Origin: an uncultured Gammaproteobacteria bacterium
GTDB lineage: Bacteria; Patescibacteriota; Microgenomatia; UBA8517
NCBI GenBank assembly: GCA_964524515.1
Contig: CAZGEA010000001.1
Span: 169,522 to 233,521 of the forward strand
Reading direction: 5' to 3'
DNA: 64,000 nucleotides
Part shown: piece after piece, positions 119 to 16,107 of the stretch
Layout: the number at the start of each line of letters is the position of its first letter
Position numbering within the stretch: position 1 is the stretch's first letter
Notes under the pieces: model-generated
The model's input: the letters and a program-made list of their open reading frames with translations, nothing else
Database searches by the model: none
What the model was told of the DNA's origin: nothing
Position numbers and translations under genes: made by a program

Positions 119-191
119 CGGGGTGTGGCTCAGTTGGTAGAGCGCTCGCTTTGGGAGCGAGAGGCCGTGAGTTCGAATCTCGCCACCCCGA
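119..191 (+). tRNA. tRNA-Pro (anticodon TGG)
   Basis: Cloverleaf: acceptor cggggtg/caccccg, anticodon stem ctcgc/gcgag, loop tttggga (TGG), T-loop ttcgaat. A TATAAT box lies at about 97-102. CCA is not encoded. Confidence 0.85.
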
Positions 192-223
192 CAAAATATC
201 TTAGCCTCCATTTACCCTTTTTG

Positions 224-1174: not shown

Positions 1175-1309
<135 letters not shown>

Positions 1310-2254: not shown

Positions 2255-2332
2255 GGTGGTAGTAGCTCAGTTGGTTAGAGCGCTGCTCTGTGAAAGCAGA
2301 GGTCGCCGGTTCGAGACCGGTCTACCACCCCA
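2255..2332 (+). tRNA. tRNA-His (anticodon GTG) with encoded G-1 and encoded CCA
   Basis: G-1 followed by acceptor gtggtag/ctaccac, D-stem gctc/gagc, anticodon stem ctgct/agcag with loop ctgtgaa, T-loop ttcgaga, discriminator C then CCA (2330-2332). Confidence 0.9.
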
Positions 2333-2884
2333 AATGATATTTTGAGATTGAGAAACCTCACTTTGAGCCGTATTATTAACGTTTTCGTTAGGTTCGAGCC
2401 GTTCTAATGTATTAATTTCTGTAACTGCCTGCTGAATTTTGAAAAATGGTGTTCGTGCCTCAATTGTAAGTTTTTTATCCTTTAAAAGTAGGTGCGAGCC
2501 AATTGCTCTTAAAATTATTTTACGTTCTTCAATATCCCCATCTGAAAATCTGTCTTGTGCTGTTGCAGCAAAGTCGAATGTTTTAGCGGCCAACTCTGCC
2601 CATTCATCAATATATTTATCTACTTTTGATAATAGCTCTTGCGCCCTAGCTTTTTCGACCAACAGTGATTCTTTTTTCTCTGCAAATTCCTCGTCTGAAA
2701 TTAAAATACCACCTTTATTTGCCTCGGATATTTTTAGTTCAAGTAAATTATCAATTTTTCTTACAATATCTTCATAGGATTTTTTCAATGCCAAATAACG
2801 AGTCTCTCGCGTCTCTTTTTGCTTCTCATTTACAACATTAAGCCATTTAATTGCCCAATCCACAAATTCATAGTCAAGTTTCAT
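2267..2884 (-). CDS. hypothetical coiled-coil protein whose reading frame continues antisense through tRNA-His; possibly a 3'-truncated gene remnant
   Basis: First ATG is at 2884 with an in-frame stop 15 codons upstream. The last ~20 codons are the reverse complement of the tRNA, so the native C-terminus is doubtful. The opposite-strand ORF 2439..2777 is low-complexity and rejected. Confidence 0.3.
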   Translation of the reverse strand: MKLDYEFVDWAIKWLNVVNEKQKETRETRYLALKKSYEDIVRKIDNLLELKISEANKGGILISDEEFAEKKESLLVEKARAQELLSKVDKYIDEWAELAAKTFDFAATAQDRFSDGDIEERKIILRAIGSHLLLKDKKLTIEARTPFFKIQQAVTEINTLERLEPNENVNNTAQSEVSQSQNIIWGGRPVSNRRPLLSQSSALTN

Positions 2885-3406: not shown

Positions 3407-4093
3407 ATGCCAATGCTCTCTATTGAGAGCATTTTTGTTATTTATATGGACAGAAATGAAGAAATAATTGGCTACTATTCTAATCAGCCTACATGGCAGC
3501 TTGTAAAGTTTAGTGCTTACAAGAGGCAATTTACTCATCAATTAGCAATTCACTATTTGGAACACGAAATTTTTGAGTCAGTGGACAGAGAGATGCAGCA
3601 TATCCTAAGTGGACAAAATGCAGGATTTTATGCTGGCCTTAGATTTTTGTTTGCGGAAGTTACAGCGCTATCCCATTTATATTGGGGGGTAAAATCATTT
3701 ATCCCTCGTAAGGAGAGTGCATATGTTGCCAGATTTATGAGAAAGTTCGGAGTGTTACCTCCTGAGCATGGTGTCCATTATGAAACATTCAGGCATGGAC
3801 TGATGCACTCTCATCATCCAAAGTGGATAAAAAAAGGAAATCGAATTATAGGTTGGTATATTAGTAATACAGCAAAAGCAAACAGCTTCGGAATCTTCAT
3901 TCCCGAGTTCACCGAGCAAGTTAAAAATACCATTAGTGCTTTTATTGCCGAGTTGAGGGTAGAAGAAATAGCAGGTAAAAATACCCGACTCAAAAAATTT
4001 ATTGAAGGATATACCCACACCGCCAAAGTATTGAAGCGTAGGGACTTAGGCAAATACTCAAGAACGGATTTTTCAAAAGTACCTATTACCTAA
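3407..4093 (+). CDS. hypothetical protein with a HEPN-like R-x4-H motif (FRHGLMHSHH); first gene of a four-gene cassette
   Basis: The ORF ends 1 nt before the next gene. An alternative start at ATG 3446 (MDRNEE) is more compatible with the -10-like tagtataat at 3397-3405. Histidine-rich. Family not recognised. Confidence 0.4.
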   Translation: MPMLSIESIFVIYMDRNEEIIGYYSNQPTWQLVKFSAYKRQFTHQLAIHYLEHEIFESVDREMQHILSGQNAGFYAGLRFLFAEVTALSHLYWGVKSFIPRKESAYVARFMRKFGVLPPEHGVHYETFRHGLMHSHHPKWIKKGNRIIGWYISNTAKANSFGIFIPEFTEQVKNTISAFIAELRVEEIAGKNTRLKKFIEGYTHTAKVLKRRDLGKYSRTDFSKVPIT

Positions 4094-4094
4094 G

Positions 4095-5051
4095 ATGAAG
4101 ACAAAGAATCTATTTTCAGGCAGGAAAAAGTTTGTAACCATTCCAGTTGCCGCACTTCTCGGCCTGTTTTTCCTTCCTGTAACTATTGGCATTTTACTTA
4201 TTTACTTTTCAAATAAGAAAATTAGGTTAAAACCTTTGCGTTATTCTATTGTCGGCATACTCTCCTTAATTACCCTATTTTTTGGAACTGCCTATGTAGC
4301 AGCTTTTGTATCCCCAAGCACCCCTAAACAGGAAACGAAAGAGCCGGAAGCGGTAATTTCGACAAGTCCTACGCCAATTCTTGCTATGCAAAATCAAGGC
4401 TTGGTAAAAGTAACGCGGGTGATTGATGGAGACACGATTGAAATTGAAGGTGGACAAAGGGTAAGGCTAATTGGCATAGATACTCCGGAGACAGTTGACC
4501 CAAACCGCCCTGCCGGATGCTATGGCACCGATGCCAGTAGTTTTACAAAAGCTCAACTTGAAGGCAAAGAAATAAAACTAGAAAAAGATATTTCAGAAAC
4601 AGACCAATATGGAAGATTATTGCGTTATGTATGGCTTGGAGACACTTTATTTAATGAAACCCTTGTCAAAGAAGGCTATGCTCAAGTCTCAACTTACCCG
4701 CCGGATGTAAAAAACAGCGAAAGATTTTTAGCTGCTCAAAAAGAAGCAAGAGACAATAATCGAGGTTTGTGGTCTACATGCCAAAACACCCCTGCTCCCA
4801 GTACATCTGTCTCAACTCCGAAGCCAGTTACAGCTACCCCAAAACCCAATGTGGCAACTCAACAAACCCAAACTTCCGGCTCGTGTAAGTATTCTTGCAA
4901 TTCACCGGATAGAGATTGCTCTGATTTTTCAACCCATGCAGAAGCACAAGCGTTTTTCAACTGTTGTGGATTCTCTGCCGGCAATGACCCTATGAGACTT
5001 GATAAGGCCACTGGAACAGGAAATGGAATTGCCTGCGAGAGTTTACCTTAG
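4095..5051 (+). CDS. membrane-anchored thermonuclease (SNase/micrococcal nuclease family) with C-terminal Excalibur calcium-binding domain
   Basis: Two N-terminal TM helices. SNase motifs VIDGDTIEIE, RLIGIDTPE and YGRLLRYVW. A Thr/Pro-rich linker leads into an Excalibur-like C-terminus (CSDFSTHAEAQAFF...DKATGTGNGIACE). Confidence 0.85.
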   Translation: MKTKNLFSGRKKFVTIPVAALLGLFFLPVTIGILLIYFSNKKIRLKPLRYSIVGILSLITLFFGTAYVAAFVSPSTPKQETKEPEAVISTSPTPILAMQNQGLVKVTRVIDGDTIEIEGGQRVRLIGIDTPETVDPNRPAGCYGTDASSFTKAQLEGKEIKLEKDISETDQYGRLLRYVWLGDTLFNETLVKEGYAQVSTYPPDVKNSERFLAAQKEARDNNRGLWSTCQNTPAPSTSVSTPKPVTATPKPNVATQQTQTSGSCKYSCNSPDRDCSDFSTHAEAQAFFNCCGFSAGNDPMRLDKATGTGNGIACESLP

Positions 5052-5059
5052 AATTAATT

Positions 5060-6979
5060 ATGGAAAATAAAATCTCAAAAGCGACCAGACAGCTAATTTT
5101 TGACTTTTTAAAAGCTGAGAAAATAAAGTGGTTCGGTAGTTCAGATGATATATCATTTTTGGAAAAAATATTTGATTTGGAAAATTTACCGTCGACTGAT
5201 GGTAGATACAGCAATGTAAAGGGAGATATTTTTCAACACAGACAGAATAATGCGGATTGGGAAGACGATTGGATTTTCACAGACAGCCGGTTCAACCTCC
5301 TGAATTGTGAAGATAGCATATATTGTAAATTTATAGAGGAGATTTTAAATCCACTAATAAGAGCAGAAAACGAAATAGACTCTATAATCTCCTTTGCAAA
5401 TGACGCACTCAAAAGAGATAAATATCTAATCGTAAAAAAGGAAAAAATTGGAGGAAAGCAGTTTTATCAAATTCTTCCACTTAAATGGGTTGAATCAATA
5501 AAAGATATTGAGTTCCGAGTCGTTCGAGGGAATACTCCACCCGCTTACTATATCAATGAACCTTCTAGATTGATATTAAAGTGGGACAACTGGAACGATT
5601 ACGGATATGAAACACTTTTTTACTTGGATTATGTCGATGAGAATAAGAAGGTGCATTCTATTGGTGCAGTCAAAATTGCATTTATTGCCGATAAACCTAA
5701 GGCCGATGAAAAACCACTTTCTACACGTAATGTTTTAGAAGCAGTGTTTTCAGAACTCCCTAGCAATTTTTTTTCACTAGGACAATCACCTGACTACTAT
5801 CAAAATTTATTGAGTTTGGGAAAACCTATTTATACCACCGTTCTTGAAAAACTCCGAGACGTAGTTTTTAACGAAGAAGTCTTAAAAAGTTTCCGGGAAA
5901 CTGAACCGTTTAAAGTCTCTTTGATAAGAGGTTCGGAAGCTGAAAAGGCTTTTGGTGAATCAGGAGAACTATTCAAACTAGAATATAGAAAGTTTGAAGA
6001 TACTTTAAACTTCACGTTTACTACAAGGGTCAAAAACGCTGATAACGAACATGCTGTAACGTTTGACTTTCGAAAAGGAGCGCTACCGCATAGAATACAT
6101 GTCCTGATTGGCAAGAACGGAACTGGAAAAACCATGTTTTTGAATAACCTATCTAACGCTTTGAGCGGAATCTCAGGAGAAAAGCTTAAAAGCGAGTTCG
6201 GTACTTTTGATACAAAGCCAAGTTTTAGGAAAATAATTACTTTCTCATATAGCGCTTTTGATACTTTTAACACTTCAACTCAAAACTCACTAGGATACAA
6301 ATATTGCGGCATTAGGAAAGATGACAATGAACTGTTTTCAAGGAAAGAACTAAAAAGCAAGTTTGTTAACTCTATCAGGCAGCTAAAATCAAAAGGTAGA
6401 GTTCATGATTGGAATCAAGGCATGTTAAAACTTCTGAATATACCTGAAATCGTAAATGAAGATTTTGACGAAGGGGTATGGAGCGATAGATATGACCTCC
6501 TTAGCTCTGGGCAGACAATTATTTGTACACTGCTCGCTGAAACATTGGCATTTATAGAAAAAGAATCTTTGATACTTATAGATGAGCCAGAATTACACTT
6601 ACACCCCAACAGCTTAATAGGCTTTATTAACACACTTTATTTTATTTTGAATAGCTATGATTCCTATGCAGTTTTAGCTACTCATTCTCCAATTGTCGTA
6701 AAGGAGATACCCTCAAAATATATTAATGTTTTCCGTCGTTCTGATAATAGCCCATATATTCAAACATTAAATTTTGAAACTTTTGGAGAGAATTATTCAG
6801 TCATTGCACAGGAAATTTTTGGTCTTATCGAATCTGACCACATATATAAAAAGGTTTTAGAAGAATTGTATAAGGAAACGCTTTCGATTGATGAAGTAAA
6901 AAAGTTATTTAATGGCAACCTTAGTGCAAATGCTGAAATATATCTGAATGTATTAAAAAATAACCATGAAAAAGATTAA
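5060..6979 (+). CDS. ABC/AAA_21-type ATPase (Septu PtuA-like) with an unassigned ~350-aa N-terminal domain
   Basis: Walker A GKNGTGKT at about aa 351, signature-like LSSGQ, Walker B/D-loop LILIDEPELHLHP and H-loop LATHSP. Residues 1-340 match nothing I recognise. The start lies 8 nt after the nuclease stop. Confidence 0.85.
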   Translation: MENKISKATRQLIFDFLKAEKIKWFGSSDDISFLEKIFDLENLPSTDGRYSNVKGDIFQHRQNNADWEDDWIFTDSRFNLLNCEDSIYCKFIEEILNPLIRAENEIDSIISFANDALKRDKYLIVKKEKIGGKQFYQILPLKWVESIKDIEFRVVRGNTPPAYYINEPSRLILKWDNWNDYGYETLFYLDYVDENKKVHSIGAVKIAFIADKPKADEKPLSTRNVLEAVFSELPSNFFSLGQSPDYYQNLLSLGKPIYTTVLEKLRDVVFNEEVLKSFRETEPFKVSLIRGSEAEKAFGESGELFKLEYRKFEDTLNFTFTTRVKNADNEHAVTFDFRKGALPHRIHVLIGKNGTGKTMFLNNLSNALSGISGEKLKSEFGTFDTKPSFRKIITFSYSAFDTFNTSTQNSLGYKYCGIRKDDNELFSRKELKSKFVNSIRQLKSKGRVHDWNQGMLKLLNIPEIVNEDFDEGVWSDRYDLLSSGQTIICTLLAETLAFIEKESLILIDEPELHLHPNSLIGFINTLYFILNSYDSYAVLATHSPIVVKEIPSKYINVFRRSDNSPYIQTLNFETFGENYSVIAQEIFGLIESDHIYKKVLEELYKETLSIDEVKKLFNGNLSANAEIYLNVLKNNHEKD

Positions 6980-7793
6980 TCCATATCGATGTGATAATTT
7001 TGCAGAATATAATAGCGTAGTTGCGAAGAAGTCGAATCAATCTGAAAAAATATTGCTATCTAATGTCAGCTCTAAAGTAGACAATAGATACAAAGAATAT
7101 GAAGATAATACAAGTTCACTAGAAATGATTGGCCTAATTAGTTGGGAAAAGGAAAACGCTAAGGCCTTACGAAATCTAGTTAACAGCCGCACTTATTTCT
7201 CAACGCTTAAAAGGAAGATACGACAGCTTAGCAAAAATGGCAAATGTATGTATTGCGATTTTAGTGAACATGACCCCTTAGACCACTACTTGCCCAAGAA
7301 CCCCTATCCTGAATTTTCAATTTTTAGCCTGAACTTGATACCGTCTTGCAGTAGATGTAATCGATTAAAGCACGATGAAATATTCATTAATGGAAAAAGG
7401 GTGTATCTTAATCCCTACTTTGATGCGATTGACGAAAAGCAATATGTAGTTTGTGACATTTATTTCAAAGGAAGCAATCTTCCCACACCTGAGTTTAGTA
7501 TAGAATCTTATAAAGGCGATACTCTTGCAGAAATATTTTTGACTCATTTTGAGAAGCTTAGTTTGAAAGAAAGATATGAAAATGAGGCTAACGAACTTAT
7601 AACTAATTGGGTTTCGAGAGCTGCACAGATTAAAAACATATCTGGCGATTTTAATACAAATATGAAAAACCTTATTAGAGTTGACCTTAATGCAGATAAG
7701 ACGAGATTCGGGATTAATAATTGGAGATATGCAGTAGAGAAAGCAATGATAGAAAGTGATAAATTTATAGAATATTGTAAAAATGCAGTATAG
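6966..7793 (+). CDS. HNH endonuclease (Septu PtuB-like)
   Basis: HNH core CMYCDFSEHDPLDHYLPKN...SCSRCNRLKHD (two CxxC pairs, DH, N). The start overlaps the ATPase stop by 14 nt, which indicates translational coupling. Confidence 0.8.
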   Translation: MKKINPYRCDNFAEYNSVVAKKSNQSEKILLSNVSSKVDNRYKEYEDNTSSLEMIGLISWEKENAKALRNLVNSRTYFSTLKRKIRQLSKNGKCMYCDFSEHDPLDHYLPKNPYPEFSIFSLNLIPSCSRCNRLKHDEIFINGKRVYLNPYFDAIDEKQYVVCDIYFKGSNLPTPEFSIESYKGDTLAEIFLTHFEKLSLKERYENEANELITNWVSRAAQIKNISGDFNTNMKNLIRVDLNADKTRFGINNWRYAVEKAMIESDKFIEYCKNAV

Positions 7794-7877: not shown

Positions 7878-7908
7878 CGCAGAATAAGAGCTTTCAGCAG
7901 CTCTCGTT
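7878..7908 (+). terminator. candidate intrinsic terminator downstream of the HNH gene
   Basis: Stem agagct / agctct with loop ttcagc, followed by the T-rich tail cgttctttactttcc. Confidence 0.35.
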
Positions 7909-10078: not shown

Positions 10079-11227
10079 ATGTTAAATAACAACGATATGA
10101 CACCAGAAAGATCAAAAGATATTACAAATTTAAATGACCCACAAGTTTTAGTTTCTGACGTTCTAAAAATGCGTGAACTAAATCCAGCCAATAGAATGGC
10201 CAAGTTCTTCCCTACAGATTATTTTTTAAGCCAAACACCAGCAGTTCAAGCAGAAATCTCAAAAATTGTAATTGCAGGACTTGCAAACAACGATAGCGAA
10301 ATTGGAGCTTATGCTATGGCAACAACTGACTACGACACTTTTAGTCCAGTTTTAGATCCAATTATCCAAGATTATCATGCAGTTACCCCAGAATTTAAAT
10401 TTCAAGGAAATTGGGACATAAACGGATTAGATTTAGATTTAAAAAAGGTTGATCTTCAATTATCAGATGTTTCAATGAGAGTACGTGTTGCAAGAAATGT
10501 TTCAGGTTGGCCAATGACTGGAAGCATGTCACAAGATGATAGAGTTAATTTTGAAAATTACATGGTCGAAACAGTATTTGAAAAAATGATCTCAAATCCA
10601 AAGTATGGTGGAAGATACGTATCCCTCACTCCTGGATCAAAATATCAAATTTCAGATGATGAATATAACCAATTGGTCGCAGAACACAAAATGTACAAAG
10701 ACATGAGTGCTGATCCTCATCTTGCTGCAGCAGGAATCAGTGGTGATTGGCCATATGGAAGAGGAATGTATGTTTCAGCAGATGGTGGATCAATTGTATG
10801 GGTTAACGAAGAAGATCATTTAAGAATCATGAATATGAAAAAAGGTTCCGATCTATCAACTATTTTCAACGGACTCAGAGAAGAATTGGATTTAATCGAA
10901 TCACTTGGTGTTCCATTTGCAAGATCTGAAAAATATGGCTATGTCACAAGCTGTCCATCAAATTTAGGTACAGGAATGCGCGCAAGCTTACATTTGGCTC
11001 TTCCAAACTTAACTGAAAACGGTAAAAACACCGATAAATTAAAAAATATTTTAAAGGAAAACAAACTAAACGTATCAGTTCGCGGAATAGGTGGAGAACA
11101 CACAGCAGCTGGTGAAGGTGGAATAGTTGATATCTCACCAAGAGGTAGAATGATTCCAGAAAATCAAGTCATAACTCAGCTTTACGACGCAGCAGCAAAA
11201 CTCTTAAGTCTAGAAAAAAGCGCTTAA
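10079..11227 (+). CDS. phosphagen kinase, eukaryote-type arginine kinase family (ATP:guanidino phosphotransferase)
   Basis: Active-site CPSNLGTGMRAS, NEEDHLRIM, WPYGRGMY and C-terminal RGIGGEHT...GGIVDIS. The N-terminal small domain (GAYAMATTDYDTFSPVLDPIIQDYH) matches arthropod arginine kinase, not McsB-type bacterial kinases. Confidence 0.85.
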   Translation: MLNNNDMTPERSKDITNLNDPQVLVSDVLKMRELNPANRMAKFFPTDYFLSQTPAVQAEISKIVIAGLANNDSEIGAYAMATTDYDTFSPVLDPIIQDYHAVTPEFKFQGNWDINGLDLDLKKVDLQLSDVSMRVRVARNVSGWPMTGSMSQDDRVNFENYMVETVFEKMISNPKYGGRYVSLTPGSKYQISDDEYNQLVAEHKMYKDMSADPHLAAAGISGDWPYGRGMYVSADGGSIVWVNEEDHLRIMNMKKGSDLSTIFNGLREELDLIESLGVPFARSEKYGYVTSCPSNLGTGMRASLHLALPNLTENGKNTDKLKNILKENKLNVSVRGIGGEHTAAGEGGIVDISPRGRMIPENQVITQLYDAAAKLLSLEKSA

Positions 11228-11734: not shown

Positions 11735-13144
11735 CTACAAATTCCCTAAATCAACTTCTCGCACATCCTTTATCTTTTCATAAAAATCAGACAAATGTGA
11801 AACAAAAATAATTGCTCCTTCATATTCATTAATCGCCTTTGTAATGATCGGAATATGTCTAAAATTAATATGATTTGTTGGCTCATCAAGAATCAATAAT
11901 CCTGGTTTTTGCAAATAAAGTCTAGCATAGCACAAGAGTCCTTTTTGTCCCTCAGATAATGCTTCCACTTTTGTATTTAAAATATCAGATGTCAATAAAA
12001 ATTTTGCACCAGTTTCATATACTTCTTGATTATTTAAATTGGGAGATACTGATAATAATGATTCAAATGCAGTCTGTCCAAAATCAAGCTCTGAAAAATC
12101 CTGACTATAATATCCAACTTTTACTTTTGGATTAATGTCAGCACTTTCATTTGCAATAATCGATCGAAGTAATGTACTTTTCCCAATACCATTAGGTCCT
12201 TTTATGTGAAGCCTCATTCCTTTAACTAATTCTGTTTCAATTGGTTTTTTAATCTTTATCACATACCCCACATATTCTTGATTTGAAATTTTAAACTCAG
12301 GCAATGTTCTATCTTCACGTCTCACTTCAACAGTTTCTTCACGATCACGATCAATATCTTCTCTAATTCTACGAGCCAATTGATTCATAGCAACGCTTTT
12401 ACCTCCAAGTTTATTAATTTTTTCAAATCTATCTTTAATACTCTTTTCAATTCGTGCATTCTTTTGTCGATCACGCTCCAATTTGGCTGCAATTTCCTCC
12501 AAAACATCGAAATAATTTCCAACAAATTGTTCAACTTTTTTAGTATGAATATCCAAATTTAATACTCCATCAGTAAAACAATTTAAAAAATCTGCATCAT
12601 GGGAAATTACGATACAAGTTTTTGGATATGTTATCAAAAACGAAGTCAATTCTCCCACTCCTTCTTTATCCAAATTATTAGTAGGTTCATCCAAAAGCAA
12701 AACGTCAGGATTTGTAATGAGTGCATATGAAAGTAATAATCGAGCTTTCTGTCCGCCTGATAATTCTTTAACTTTTCGAGTTATGGGAACATTTAACTTT
12801 ACTTGGTCCATTACTTTTTTAATATCACCTTCAATGCCATATTCTTTGTCAGGCAATGCAGTTTTAAAATATTCCAAAAGTGTAAACTCTAGCTTTTCCT
12901 GAGATACCATCTGTTGAGCAATACCAATAGTCGTTCCAATCTCAAGATTAATTTTACCGCGTTGTGGTTTTAACTCTCCAAGCAATAATTTAAAAATTGT
13001 TGATTTACCTGCTCCGTTTTGGCCCATTATAGTAATAATCGAATTTCGATTAACACTAAAATTCGCCTCATCCAAAATCACTTTTGAATCAGAATAAGAA
13101 AAAGAAACATCATCAAATCGTATAATTACATTATTTTGTGGCAT
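11735..13144 (-). CDS. ABC-F family ATPase (two tandem ABC ATPase domains, no membrane domain)
   Basis: Two Walker A motifs (GQNGAGKST, GPNGIGKST), two signatures (LSGGQ, LSEGQ), two Walker B motifs (LLLDEPTN, LILDEPTN) and a charged linker. Confidence 0.8.
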   Translation of the reverse strand: MPQNNVIIRFDDVSFSYSDSKVILDEANFSVNRNSIITIMGQNGAGKSTIFKLLLGELKPQRGKINLEIGTTIGIAQQMVSQEKLEFTLLEYFKTALPDKEYGIEGDIKKVMDQVKLNVPITRKVKELSGGQKARLLLSYALITNPDVLLLDEPTNNLDKEGVGELTSFLITYPKTCIVISHDADFLNCFTDGVLNLDIHTKKVEQFVGNYFDVLEEIAAKLERDRQKNARIEKSIKDRFEKINKLGGKSVAMNQLARRIREDIDRDREETVEVRREDRTLPEFKISNQEYVGYVIKIKKPIETELVKGMRLHIKGPNGIGKSTLLRSIIANESADINPKVKVGYYSQDFSELDFGQTAFESLLSVSPNLNNQEVYETGAKFLLTSDILNTKVEALSEGQKGLLCYARLYLQKPGLLILDEPTNHINFRHIPIITKAINEYEGAIIFVSHLSDFYEKIKDVREVDLGNL

Positions 13145-13151
13145 CGAATTG

Positions 13152-14675
13152 TTATTTTAACAGGTCATAATAAAATATTCCCAACATGTTTGAAGTCTTT
13201 GCAGATTTTATATTAAATGATTTATTAACTAATCTATCTAATATTTTCTGATCATAAATTGAGACACTACTTACTACTTTTTGGTTTTCCATTTCAATTT
13301 CTGGAAATTTTCTAGTATTTACAAATTCAGTTGCACTAATTGATGCAAAAACAAAAGCAACTGAAAAAATATTTGTTAATTGCCATGAAGCAAATTTTAT
13401 TGCCAAATTTACATTTTTGTATTCGTCTTTGTATTTACTACTGTTAATTAAAACCACTAGTCTTCGATAGAAAAACACAATCAAAGCCAAAGTTCGAGTT
13501 ATCAAATTAAACATTCCATAAAATGGAAAAATGAAAACAACCCAAACGGCTTCTTTTCTGCCCATAATTAGCCAAGTAACCAACTCACAAATAAAATATA
13601 TTACATAAGTCACCGCTAAATATTCAGGATTTCTAATAAGTAGAACTAATCCTCCAACTCTAATTGGATCAAGAAGCGTAAGTAAAAATGTATTGTAAAA
13701 TGCTTCATATCTCAATCTCCATGGGATATCTCGCATTGTAAAAACTAACTTTAAATAATTTAGAAAATTTGCATAAAATCCAGGGTTCCAACCCAATACT
13801 CTTTGGGTAAATAGTACTTTGATATTTGATGGAACTTCAGTTTTAACTGTAGAATCTACAATCACAACTCCCTTTTTCATCTCAGTTAAATGTATTAAAA
13901 GTGTTCTTTGTAAATCCTCACCTGAAAATTCACCTGAATGTATTTTAGTCTGTCTAATTAGTTCATCTGTATAAAATAACCCAATTGCACCAGAAACATT
14001 TTGAACAGTTCCTGTACTATTGTGAAACATACGTCCTATGTCCATGCTTTTTCTGTACTCATGTGTTTGAAGTTCCGTTAAGTAATTTTCCTTAATTGGA
14101 AGTACTCTAAATGCAGCCGCCTCATAACCTTCATCTAATATATTAGTAGGAACAATTGCGTTCCCCAAAATAACATCATCATCCATTATTAATGTATATG
14201 GCACTTTTACAAGTTCAAGTGCTCTATTTATTGCCTCAACTTTACCAACTCCCTCTTTAATGTCTAAAACACGTACTCCATATGATTTTGCAACTTCAAC
14301 AGTATTGTCAGTTGAACCATTCGAAGAAACAATTATTGATTTTGCAGGAAACTTTTTAAGAAGTGATTTAAGTGTTTTTCCTAAAAAATCTCCTCCATTG
14401 TGACATGGAATAACTACGTTTACTTTTGACAAATCCTCAACAGACTTAATTAACCTCTTTGGAGTCAATGATTCAATTATTGTTTTAATACTATCAATAA
14501 AAAATACTGGAATAATAATTGTTAAAATATTGTTAGCACTTGAATCAGATACTGAGTTTTCAATAACTACTAAAATATACAAAACAAACAAATATAGGTT
14601 AAACCACATAAGTGATTTATCTGTAAATATTTTATTCATTCTATTACGAATTAGTGAAAGATATGAAAAATTCAT
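13152..14675 (-). CDS. membrane family-2 glycosyltransferase (cellulose/chitin-synthase-like GT-A with flanking TM segments)
   Basis: N-terminal TM helices, GT-A core (VVIPCHNGG...NGSTDNT...MDDD) and a C-terminal multi-TM region. Confidence 0.7.
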   Translation of the reverse strand: MNFSYLSLIRNRMNKIFTDKSLMWFNLYLFVLYILVVIENSVSDSSANNILTIIIPVFFIDSIKTIIESLTPKRLIKSVEDLSKVNVVIPCHNGGDFLGKTLKSLLKKFPAKSIIVSSNGSTDNTVEVAKSYGVRVLDIKEGVGKVEAINRALELVKVPYTLIMDDDVILGNAIVPTNILDEGYEAAAFRVLPIKENYLTELQTHEYRKSMDIGRMFHNSTGTVQNVSGAIGLFYTDELIRQTKIHSGEFSGEDLQRTLLIHLTEMKKGVVIVDSTVKTEVPSNIKVLFTQRVLGWNPGFYANFLNYLKLVFTMRDIPWRLRYEAFYNTFLLTLLDPIRVGGLVLLIRNPEYLAVTYVIYFICELVTWLIMGRKEAVWVVFIFPFYGMFNLITRTLALIVFFYRRLVVLINSSKYKDEYKNVNLAIKFASWQLTNIFSVAFVFASISATEFVNTRKFPEIEMENQKVVSSVSIYDQKILDRLVNKSFNIKSAKTSNMLGIFYYDLLK

Positions 14676-14700
14676 GAAGCAGCTATTATCTCAAAATATA

Positions 14701-14775
14701 TGCAAATTTGCAAACTATAAGATAAACAATCTCAAAGTAATTTGAGACCAATTGACAAATGCAACTCAGTTGCAT
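14701..14775. promoter_or_regulatory. Two perfect palindromes sharing TGCAA/TTGCA half-sites: TGCAAATTTGCA (14701-14712) and ATGCAACTCAGTTGCAT (14759-14775); candidate Zur/Fur-family operators
   Basis: The second palindrome sits between a perfect TTGACA -35 box (14752-14757) and the start of the Fur-family gene at 14786. Confidence 0.45.
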
Positions 14776-14785
14776 ACACTAAACA

Positions 14786-15205
14786 ATGAATATAATTCTG
14801 CAAAATTATTTAGATAAAATTAAATCAAAGGGGCATATAATCACACAAACAAGAAAATCTATCTTAGAGATTTTCTCCAATCACCCATCCCCTCAATCAG
14901 CATCAGACATACTAAATTCGCTTAAAAAAAATAACATATCAGTCGATAAAACAACAATTTATCGAGAATTAGAATTCTTACTAAATCAAAACCTAATTAA
15001 TGAAGTTCACTTTGATGACGGCAAAACAAGATATGAAGCAACTGACGAAAAACACCATCATCACTTAATATGTAATAGTTGTGGCAATATAAAAGATATT
15101 GATATTGAGGAATCAAATTTTTTATCAAATATTGAAAGCAAATCAAGATTTCGTGTTATAAAACACAAAATAGAATTTTTCGGATTATGTATAAACTGCC
15201 AGTAA
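14786..15205 (+). CDS. zur: Fur-family transcriptional regulator, probably Zur
   Basis: N-terminal HTH, HHHH and two CxxC pairs (CNSCG, CINCQ). Located directly upstream of a metal ABC transporter. Confidence 0.7.
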   Translation: MNIILQNYLDKIKSKGHIITQTRKSILEIFSNHPSPQSASDILNSLKKNNISVDKTTIYRELEFLLNQNLINEVHFDDGKTRYEATDEKHHHHLICNSCGNIKDIDIEESNFLSNIESKSRFRVIKHKIEFFGLCINCQ

Positions 15206-16107
15206 AAATTAAATTATCTCCAATTCCACTATTAGTTATATTTAGTATTTTTATTTTTTCTGTATTTATTTTTTTAATAACATTTACAAAAAATCAGAAT
15301 AACTCAAATAAAATTACAATAACAACATCATTCTATCCTCTTTGGGAATTTACAAATAACATTTCTGGTACAAATATTAATGTAATAAACATCACTCCAC
15401 CTGGTATTGAACCACACGACTTTGAACCAACAACAAAAGATATTGAAGATATTTTCAATTCCAAGATATTTATATACAATGGCGCAGGAATTGATAAATG
15501 GACTGACAAAATTTTAGATAAACTAAACGATCGGGGCATTGTCGTAATTAATATGACAGAAAATTTAGGAATAGGGCAAAATTCTGATCCACATTTCTGG
15601 CTCAATCCACTTCTTGCTTCAAATGCAGTTGATATTATTCAAAATGAAATCATAAAAATAGACAGTAAAAATTCAAATATTTACACAGAAAATTCTAATA
15701 AATATAAATCCCAGTTAACAAAATTACTTTCAGATTTTGACAAAAATCTCGCGTCTTGCAATAAAAAAATGATTATTACTGCACATGATGCTTTTGAATA
15801 TCTTGCAAAAAGATATAATCTAAAAGTTATATCAATTTCAGGAATAGAGCCGAATATTGACCCTTCAACTAAACAAATCGCAAATATAATTACTACTGCA
15901 AAAAATAACAAAATAAAGTATGTATTTTTTGAATCTCTTTTGTCACCAAAAATTTCTCAATCAATCGCAAACGAAATCGGTGGTGAAACATTAATGTTTG
16001 ATCCGATCGAAGGAATTTCACAAAATGATATTCAAAATGGCTCAAATTACATATCAATTCAATACAACAACTTGGACAGTTTAAAAAAAGCGCTAGAATG
16101 TAATTAG
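15187..16107 (+). CDS. znuA: metal ABC transporter substrate-binding protein (ZnuA/TroA-like)
   Basis: N-terminal TM/signal sequence and cluster-9 SBP-like sequence (HDAFEYLAKRYNL, DPHFWL). The start may be an internal ATG. Confidence 0.65.
   Translation: MYKLPVKIKLSPIPLLVIFSIFIFSVFIFLITFTKNQNNSNKITITTSFYPLWEFTNNISGTNINVINITPPGIEPHDFEPTTKDIEDIFNSKIFIYNGAGIDKWTDKILDKLNDRGIVVINMTENLGIGQNSDPHFWLNPLLASNAVDIIQNEIIKIDSKNSNIYTENSNKYKSQLTKLLSDFDKNLASCNKKMIITAHDAFEYLAKRYNLKVISISGIEPNIDPSTKQIANIITTAKNNKIKYVFFESLLSPKISQSIANEIGGETLMFDPIEGISQNDIQNGSNYISIQYNNLDSLKKALECN

Follow-up and report, generated by a model that had tools for sequence, protein, structure and literature searches.

An Intact ATPase-HNH Gene Pair of the Ea59/Ea31 Family

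A 64,000-nucleotide stretch of a patescibacterial genome (GenBank assembly GCA_964524515.1, contig CAZGEA010000001.1, positions 169,522 to 233,521 of the forward strand; hereafter the window) contains, at positions 5060 to 7793, an intact two-gene module in which the gene for an ATPase subunit of 639 residues is followed by that for an HNH nuclease subunit of 275 residues, with the catalytic motifs present. By sequence comparison, this pair is a member of the Ea59/Ea31 family, which is listed in PADLOC as the candidate system PDC-M01 and is a sister of Septu PtuAB. The pair is best read as an ATP-regulated two-subunit nuclease of the Ea59/Ea31 type whose role is most likely in defence or conflict, and a probability of roughly 0.7 is assigned to this reading. 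The locus adds one Patescibacteria (candidate phyla radiation) member to a family that is already represented in defence-prediction databases.

An initial annotation, made by a model from the DNA letters without database searches, had described a 639-residue ATPase translationally coupled to an HNH nuclease. The two open reading frames (ORFs), of 639 and 275 residues, are present with the coordinates listed in Table 1 and overlap by 14 nucleotides, an arrangement consistent with translational coupling. Among PADLOC profiles, the best match of the large subunit was PDC-M01A (PDLC04244; E = 8e-141, residues 169-637) and that of the HNH partner was PDC-M01B (E = 4e-55), which matched over the whole length of the protein. 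A further profile, PDLC04240 (639 positions), aligned to residues 30-630 of the large subunit, nearly end to end, and a PADLOC profile therefore already covers the architecture that bears an N-terminal AbiJ_NTD3 domain. No architectural difference separates PDC-M01 from the pair in the window. The best profiles were thus those of a candidate defence system with a constant HNH partner, rather than a non-defence ABC family or an ATPase with some other partner, the two outcomes that would have counted against the initial annotation.

Both subunits have relatives in phage lambda. The lambda ea59 gene was found by tblastn of phage records (L087, NC_001416 24509-26973), and its product (525 residues) aligned by BLASTP to residues 150-638 of the large subunit, MID domain included, with 29% identity (E = 4e-59). 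The equivalent motifs of Ea59 lie at residues 26 (DGWNDY), 195 (P-loop), and 391 (DEPEVHLHP). The ea31 gene, annotated as “HNH endonuclease,” lies immediately downstream of ea59 with a 4-nucleotide overlap, and Ea31 was 24% identical over 280 residues to the HNH protein of the window (BLASTP, E = 4e-14). On the PADLOC profiles, Ea59 scored 4e-201 with PDC-M01A and Ea31 scored 6e-113 with PDC-M01B. The lambda pair and the pair in the window therefore share family membership in both subunits, gene order, a MID domain joined to a compact ABC ATPase, and an overlapping HNH gene. They differ in that Ea59 has no AbiJ_NTD3 domain, its MID domain beginning at about residue 2, in the spacing of Walker A and Walker B (∼190 residues in Ea59 and ∼150 here), and in the length of the HNH subunit (296 residues in Ea31 and 275 here). 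In addition, the lambda pair is carried by a coliphage, whereas the pair described here lies on a Patescibacteria chromosome.

The Ea59 type thus has a phage lambda model with a reported nuclease activity. The lambda endonuclease of Benchimol et al. (1982) is, we presume, the Ea31/Ea59 complex. A lambda endonuclease that depends on single-stranded DNA is credited to Benchimol, Lucko and Becker 1982 (J Biol Chem 257:5211; cited in PMC5241400). Ea31 is listed elsewhere as “ATP-dependent nuclease EA31” in His-Me finger group 1, with the Cas9 HNH domain and McrA (PMC5714182), and ea59 as a non-essential “ATP-dependent endonuclease” gene (PMC10695390). No paper that mentions “ea59” together with “Septu” was found in the searched literature.

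Domain Organization of the ATPase Subunit

The initial annotation had placed the P-loop GKNGTGKT near residue 351 and DEPELHLHP near residue 500; the P-loop was located at residues 351-358 and the Walker B/D-loop at 508-516 (504-516 in the longer span of Table 1). Its description of an “inverted domain order” did not survive inspection: the ABC motifs run in the canonical order, with the catalytic residues all present and conserved across homologues, and the ATPase is neither inverted nor permuted. It lies late in the protein because an AbiJ_NTD3 domain and a MID domain of ∼150 residues precede it. Pfam matches to AAA_21, AAA_15, and ABC_tran accordingly start only at about residue 344. The C-terminal placement of the ATPase was correctly perceived, but the share assigned to it, 40% of the protein, was too small; the ATPase together with its C-terminal helices occupies the last ∼51%, or ∼45% if counted from the P-loop.

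An AlphaFold2 (AF2) model of the large subunit, built on an alignment of 56 homologues, had a mean predicted local distance difference test score of 89. In this model, residues 1-140 form a helical N-terminal domain that closes with a beta-hairpin, residues ∼150-310 form a separate alpha/beta domain (MID), and the ABC fold, from about residue 312, opens with its customary N-terminal strands at ∼317-351. With Walker A and Walker B separated by ∼150 residues, the ATPase part is a near-minimal ABC domain that lacks the long insertion found between these motifs in PtuA.

The MID domain is the hallmark of the family. Its conserved motifs are DNWNDYG, IGxVKI, SLGQxxxYY, LNDV, and SLLRxSEAEKA, and residues W178, D180, S239, Y247, D267, S287, and R290 are invariant in 56 sequences. 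The family's MID motifs N-terminal to the P-loop (D-x-W-N/D-D, SLGQ, and SLxR) are thus present in the 639-residue protein. Pfam offered nothing for MID up to E = 10, and a Foldseek search of BFVD returned nothing at or below 1e-3. A MID-only profile nevertheless recovered 2,429 matches at E ≤ 1e-3 and 1,855 at E ≤ 1e-10 among 1.84 billion cluster representatives. The domain, present in more than 2,400 representative clusters, is without a Pfam model, and none of the solved structures is close to it. It was N-terminal to the ATPase in the listed matches long enough to include one, and every variant checked against Pfam had its ATPase C-terminal to MID. Four MID-family representatives (P0128, P0164, P0170, and P0160) carry other N-terminal extensions of ∼90-230 residues, or longer C termini, and no AbiJ_NTD3. 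These alternative extensions had no Pfam match and may be other sensor modules.

The AbiJ_NTD3 Module

Residues 4-138 matched the Pfam AbiJ_NTD3 family (PF18860) with E = 2e-42; the score of 144.9 bits is above the gathering cut-off (32.5). Residues D47, R49, D56, H60, N64, D66, and R77 were invariant among 29 NTD3-bearing homologues, and this polar set is more suggestive of a pocket for binding or catalysis than of a passive adaptor. Structural neighbours of the domain were weak and were helical-bundle or death-fold-like.

The module is optional. A search of 5.8 billion proteins revealed two architectures, one of ∼630-660 residues with PF18860 and one of ∼475-500 residues without it; the shorter homologues align from about residue 170 to the end and occur in Bacillus, Peribacillus, Flavobacterium, Chryseobacterium, Alcanivorax, and others. 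AbiJ_NTD3 was carried by 11 of 80 related loci (see below). In a rough neighbour-joining tree of the MID and ATPase region, which carries no support values, NTD3-bearing and NTD3-less proteins were interleaved, which suggests that NTD3 has been gained or lost repeatedly within the family.

AbiJ-NTD1 to AbiJ-NTD5 were defined by Anantharaman et al. in 2013, who already described a fusion of AbiJ-NTD3 to an ABC ATPase, noted that Abi-type N-terminal modules are common to HEPN, TIR, and restriction endonuclease (REase) effectors, and proposed that the AbiJ N-terminal domains detect invader components and keep the effector restrained, i.e. act as sensors (PMC3710099). AbiJ itself likewise has an N-terminal AbiJ_NTD3 domain, which is found in 510 of 2,815 Abi_C proteins (PMC13590631). 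In AbiJ, however, the HEPN/Abi_C RNase effector lies within the same polypeptide, whereas in the present pair the domain is joined to an ATPase whose partner, the HNH nuclease, is a separate protein.

The HNH Subunit

The zinc-finger and catalytic residues of the HNH core (C94, C97, D106, H107, N123, C128, C131, and N132) were invariant in 46 homologues. The match of the 275-residue protein to Pfam HNH, at 17.8 bits, was under the cut-off of that model. When a family profile of the subunit was compared with solved structures, Cas9-type and other HNH domains were matched at ∼1e-5 and retron PtuB at 0.0085-0.03, with values of 0.0085-0.23 for the solved PtuB chains overall.

Relationship to Septu and Other ATPase-based Systems

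Judged by alignment, PtuAB is the closest characterised relative of the pair at the C-terminal lobe of the ATPase and at the HNH core, and the rest of both proteins differs. Septu PtuAB (8ee4/8ee7/8eea) and the retron I-A systems (Ec78/Eco7 and Ec83) likewise combine an ABC ATPase with an HNH nuclease, and the region that runs from Walker B through the H-loop to the C-terminal lobe is homologous to that of PtuA. Residues 499-606 aligned to residues 387-495 of retron-Ec78/Eco7 PtuA (E = 3.5e-6), a match that covers the Walker B to post-H-loop lobe only and includes a common ...G(S)EN... segment. In a search of solved proteins with a family profile, PtuA proteins were the closest structures, that of retron-Ec78 (1e-13) standing above OLD (6p74; 9e-8) and AriA (2e-7), with E. 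coli Septu PtuA (8ee4) at 2.4e-7. Foldseek with the full model returned the PtuA chains of retron-Eco7, Ec83, and E. coli Septu first (E = 1e-9 to 1e-6), with TM-scores of 0.3-0.48.

These similarities could be taken to mean that the pair is Septu sensu stricto and works like the solved E. coli PtuAB, in which a horseshoe-shaped PtuA hexamer carries two PtuB subunits. An adjacent ATPase and HNH gene is the operational definition of Septu, and the pair falls within Septu sensu lato as PADLOC defines it, i.e. adjacent genes that match PtuA and PtuB hidden Markov models: PtuA1 (PDLC00282) matched the large subunit at 3e-81 (residues 170-637), and PtuB1 (PDLC00340) matched the HNH protein at 4e-11, over core residues 72-141 only. 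The other PADLOC models for PtuA, retron I-A, OLD, and AriA matched the C-lobe of the ATPase only (1e-25 to 1e-12). Moreover, Bacillus loci with double PADLOC calls, Septu and PDC-M01, are reported in the literature, and PtuA structures were the top fold matches.

A closer look at both subunits makes canonical Septu an improbable identity for the pair. With the NCBIfam PtuA model (NF041760), whose cut-off is 500 bits, the large subunit scored 53.9, over residues 504-609 only; with TIGR02646 (PtuB-type HNH; cut-off 52.15 bits), the partner scored 19.9. Likeness to solved PtuA is restricted to the lobe described above, at modest TM-scores. In E. coli Septu PtuA, Walker A and Walker B are marked by K43 and D316, respectively (PMC13096335), and alignment places the P-loop of retron-Ec78 PtuA near residue 90 and its Walker B near 390. 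The N-terminal position that the initial annotation had given for the ATPase of canonical PtuA is therefore correct. The large subunit has instead its P-loop at residue 351 (compared with ∼43-95) and Walker B at 508, so that it lacks both the N-terminal P-loop and the long Walker A-B insertion of Septu sensu stricto; the spacing of the two motifs is ∼150 residues compared with ∼270-300, the insertion of PtuA being ∼150 residues longer. The 310 residues at its N terminus have no PtuA counterpart, as PtuA contains neither MID nor AbiJ_NTD3. Solved chains of PtuB run to 215-266 residues with the HNH at ∼36-80, whereas the HNH partner here, with its HNH at 94-135, is ∼60 residues longer and matches only in a core of ∼45 residues. 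Finally, lambda Ea59 scored 5e-184 end to end on PDLC00282, so that the PADLOC “PtuA1” model amounts to the Ea59 cluster. Under the name “Septu,” profile tools merge two ATPase families of different architecture, one typified by PtuA and the other by lambda Ea59, the latter with MID at the N terminus.

OLD, Gabija GajA, PARIS AriA, and MADS mad3 belong to the same AAA_15/AAA_21 ATPase superfamily but have a Toprim or other partner or fused effector rather than this HNH, and no MID. The C-lobe gave weak matches to AriA (4e-12), ATPase-Toprim_I-B (1e-13), and MAD3 (1e-8), and the scores of these systems were at least 100 orders of magnitude weaker than that of PDC-M01A. Neither Pfam nor PADLOC detected a Toprim nuclease in the pair, which sets it apart from OLD, GajA, and AriA.

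The initial annotation had left the choice between a divergent Septu subtype and a distinct ATPase-HNH system. A Septu-related system that is nevertheless distinct from canonical PtuAB is what emerged, but the arrangement is not new: it is preceded by the PDC-M01 entry of PADLOC and its full-length, NTD3-covering profile PDLC04240, by the MID and ATPase layout of lambda Ea59 with its Ea31 partner, and by the AbiJ-NTD3-ABC ATPase fusion of 2013.

Distribution and Strict Pairing of the Two Genes

The 80 related loci came from a scan in which each species was represented by a single genome, and they belong to Bacteroidota, Pseudomonadota, Actinomycetota, Cyanobacteriota, Chloroflexota, Patescibacteria, and others. 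MID was present in all 80, and in all 80 a homologue of the HNH partner lay immediately downstream on the same strand. With homologues found down to E = 9e-216, this adjacency means that the pair is not a chance occurrence. By heuristic start calls, the ATPase stop and the HNH start overlapped in 37 of the loci and lay within -30 to +15 nucleotides of each other in 61. Given the invariable downstream HNH gene, the frequent overlap, and the fact that homologues of the genes upstream of the pair occurred in 0 of the 80 loci, the unit is strictly a two-gene module.

The family is also present in plasmids (88 records) and in phages (25 records). The closest NTD3-bearing homologues, L081 and L083 (Patescibacteria; metagenome), both have a large serine recombinase ∼6-7 kb upstream, and DNA methyltransferases (one with ParB_N) and a DUF6119 or Schlafen/AlbA_2 protein lie between the pairs and the recombinases, which suggests that these two pairs ride integrative islands. 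The wider neighbourhood was sampled as 133 ORFs from 65 loci, with no control set. There was no conserved third gene; the neighbours were mostly diverse housekeeping genes, with scattered matches to integrases, transposases, type I restriction-modification specificity subunits, and TIR proteins.

Proposed Function

Septu and retron I-A provide the nearest mechanistic precedent. In these systems, an oligomer of the ABC ATPase binds PtuB through a C-terminal extension, and defence by Septu needs both the ATPase and the HNH activities; Septu nicks supercoiled DNA in vitro and, in E. coli, cleaves tRNA-Tyr with an arrest resembling abortive infection (PMC13096335; PMC12819146). By analogy with Septu and with the lambda enzyme, the HNH subunit, translated from the overlapping frame, would most likely bind the ATPase subunit, and an ATPase oligomer would hold the nuclease inactive, probably through the C-terminal helices of the ATPase (residues 595-638). 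An infection cue may then be sensed through AbiJ_NTD3, MID, or both, and this trigger would change the nucleotide state or the assembly so that the HNH nuclease is released or activated. The nuclease would cut nucleic acid, for which the precedents are DNA (the lambda enzyme and Septu in vitro) and tRNA-Tyr (E. coli Septu in vivo), and the expected outcome is that a phage or other invading element is blocked.

A more specific and more speculative proposal, held only tentatively and with more doubt than belief, is that the family is a defence system mechanistically apart from Septu, in which the ATPase assembles via MID instead of the PtuA insertion and, in the NTD3-bearing members, the invariant polar pocket marks NTD3 as a module that binds a specific small ligand or a nucleic-acid feature and thereby licenses the HNH nuclease. 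If this were true, one plug-in NTD3 sensor would gate HEPN RNases (AbiJ), TIR, REase, and ATPase-HNH effectors, and lambda would offer a ready model system.

Several observations weigh against the reading of the pair as a Septu-related defence nuclease, and much of the remaining doubt is whether the pair serves immunity in the first place. The PtuA insertion between Walker A and Walker B mediates PtuA oligomerisation, and the ATPase here is without it, so the assembly model of Septu may not transfer; both NCBIfam scores given above also fall well short of their cut-offs. The lambda ea59 and ea31 genes are non-essential and their role is unknown. They are early lytic genes and are not known to be expressed in the lysogen, which would be a poor fit to classical prophage-encoded defence. 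No published anti-phage phenotype for any member of the family was found in the searched literature, and no clear defence-island signal was seen among the 133 neighbouring ORFs, a sample that had no control set. That NTD3 acts as a sensor is a proposal taken from the literature rather than a result of this analysis. PDC-M01, finally, is described as an unpublished candidate (PMC11811056); the name denotes a candidate only and carries no mechanism.

Some of these observations, together with the genetic context of the family, would suit a non-immune accessory nuclease of mobile elements, which lambda Ea59/Ea31 may also be, that serves in DNA processing, recombination, or competition and is only a passenger of the present genome. 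The founding ea59-ea31 pair lies in the accessory, dispensable b region of lambda beside int-xis, the plasmid and phage records are numerous, integrases and transposases were the commonest neighbours in the sample, and a defence phenotype is missing from the searched literature. Mobile carriage is, however, also typical of defence systems and so does not discriminate, and the kinship to Septu and retron PtuA, the fusion to an Abi-type module, and the patchy spread across phyla are typical of defence genes. An accessory role of this kind is accordingly regarded as quite improbable, and a defence or conflict module as the favoured interpretation. Work on lambda ea59-ea31, or on the present pair with and without AbiJ_NTD3, could reveal whether PDC-M01 is a real defence system and what Abi-type modules sense.

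Genomic Surroundings

The features of the locus and its surroundings are collected in Table 1. Terminator-like sites were identified by a consensus scan in which their number equalled the chance expectation; the hairpin 94 nucleotides past the HNH stop is thus weak evidence and a possible end of the operon.

Table 1. Features of the ATPase-HNH locus and of the adjoining part of the window
Feature	Position	Strand	Basis
ATPase subunit gene (639 aa, ATG start)	5060..6979	+	ORF, translation, PADLOC PDC-M01A, lambda Ea59 alignment, AF2 model
AbiJ_NTD3 domain (residues 4-138), optional N-terminal module, putative sensor	5069..5473	+	Pfam PF18860
MID domain (~residues 150-312), family hallmark	5507..5995	+	DNWNDYG 176-182, SLGQ 239-242, SEAEKA 292-297
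Compact ABC-type ATPase (~residues 313-639)	5996..6979	+	Motifs, Pfam, PtuA alignment, Foldseek
Walker A/P-loop GKNGTGKT (residues 351-358)	6110-6133	+	Motif position
ABC signature LSSGQ (residues 481-485)	6500-6514	+	Motif position
Walker B/D-loop LILIDEPELHLHP (residues 504-516)	6569-6607	+	Motif position
H-loop ATHSP (residues 540-544)	6677-6691	+	Motif position
C-terminal helices of ATPase subunit	residues 595-638	+	AF2 model
ATPase stop/HNH start overlap, 14 nt, ATGAAAAAGATTAA	6966..6979	+	Sequence
HNH nuclease subunit gene (275 aa, ATG start)	6966..7793	+	PADLOC PDC-M01B, lambda Ea31 alignment, conserved HNH residues
HNH core (residues 94-135)	7245-7370	+	CxxC...DH...N...CxxCN
Terminator-like hairpin, 94 nt past HNH stop	7887..7904	+	Consensus scan only
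228-aa orphan ORF	3407-4093	+	No match in Pfam, NCBIfam, PADLOC, PHROGs
Staphylococcal-nuclease (SNase) protein, 318 aa	4095-5051	+	Ends 8 nt before ATPase gene
tRNA-Pro, single among small ORFs	119-192		
tRNA-Gly, single among small ORFs	1175-1247		
tRNA-His, single among small ORFs	2256-2332		
205-aa ORF	2267-2884	-	Runs into tRNA-His

Two genes precede the pair on the same strand, separated from each other by 1 nucleotide and from the ATPase gene by 8, and these gaps make co-transcription with the pair likely. The first encodes the 228-residue orphan protein, the exact sequence of which was absent from a collection of 15 billion proteins; a 9-bp hairpin (3412-3433) lies inside the 5′ end of this ORF. 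The second encodes the SNase protein, which matched thermonuclease NucI at 7e-41 and the PADLOC model C3a212 “SNc+LTD” at 3e-34, and whose sequence can be read as having hydrophobic segments at the N terminus and an Excalibur-like Cys/Asp motif at the C terminus.

The close spacing of the four genes, the PADLOC match of the SNase, and a promoter-like site found only upstream of 3407 would be expected of a four-gene operon (3407-7793) in which the 228-residue protein and a membrane SNase act with the ATPase-HNH pair. Homologues of the two upstream proteins were, however, found in none of the 80 related loci within 8 kb, and none were detected by tblastn. The features of the SNase and its NucI match fit a secreted housekeeping nuclease, which it probably is, and tight gene packing is usual in the small genomes of Patescibacteria. 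A four-gene functional unit was therefore rejected as highly improbable, and the two-gene module is retained as the unit.

Further upstream, the C terminus of the 205-residue ORF is probably spurious because the frame overlaps tRNA-His. This ORF was considered as a truncated serine recombinase like those near the L081 and L083 pairs, but no similarity was found. Elsewhere in the window, the UvrB protein shares 69-73% identity with those of Candidatus Woesebacteria, in keeping with a Patescibacteria genome, and UvrA, DnaE, PPDK, and iPGM are encoded nearby. An ATP:guanido phosphotransferase of the arginine/creatine-kinase type, with N-terminal and catalytic domains, is encoded at 10079-11227 (+) in this Patescibacteria genome. 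The G+C content falls to 26-29% at 12500-16000, compared with 33-39% around the gene pair; this segment spans a glycosyltransferase and ABC-F-like region, and its GC skew is strongly negative.

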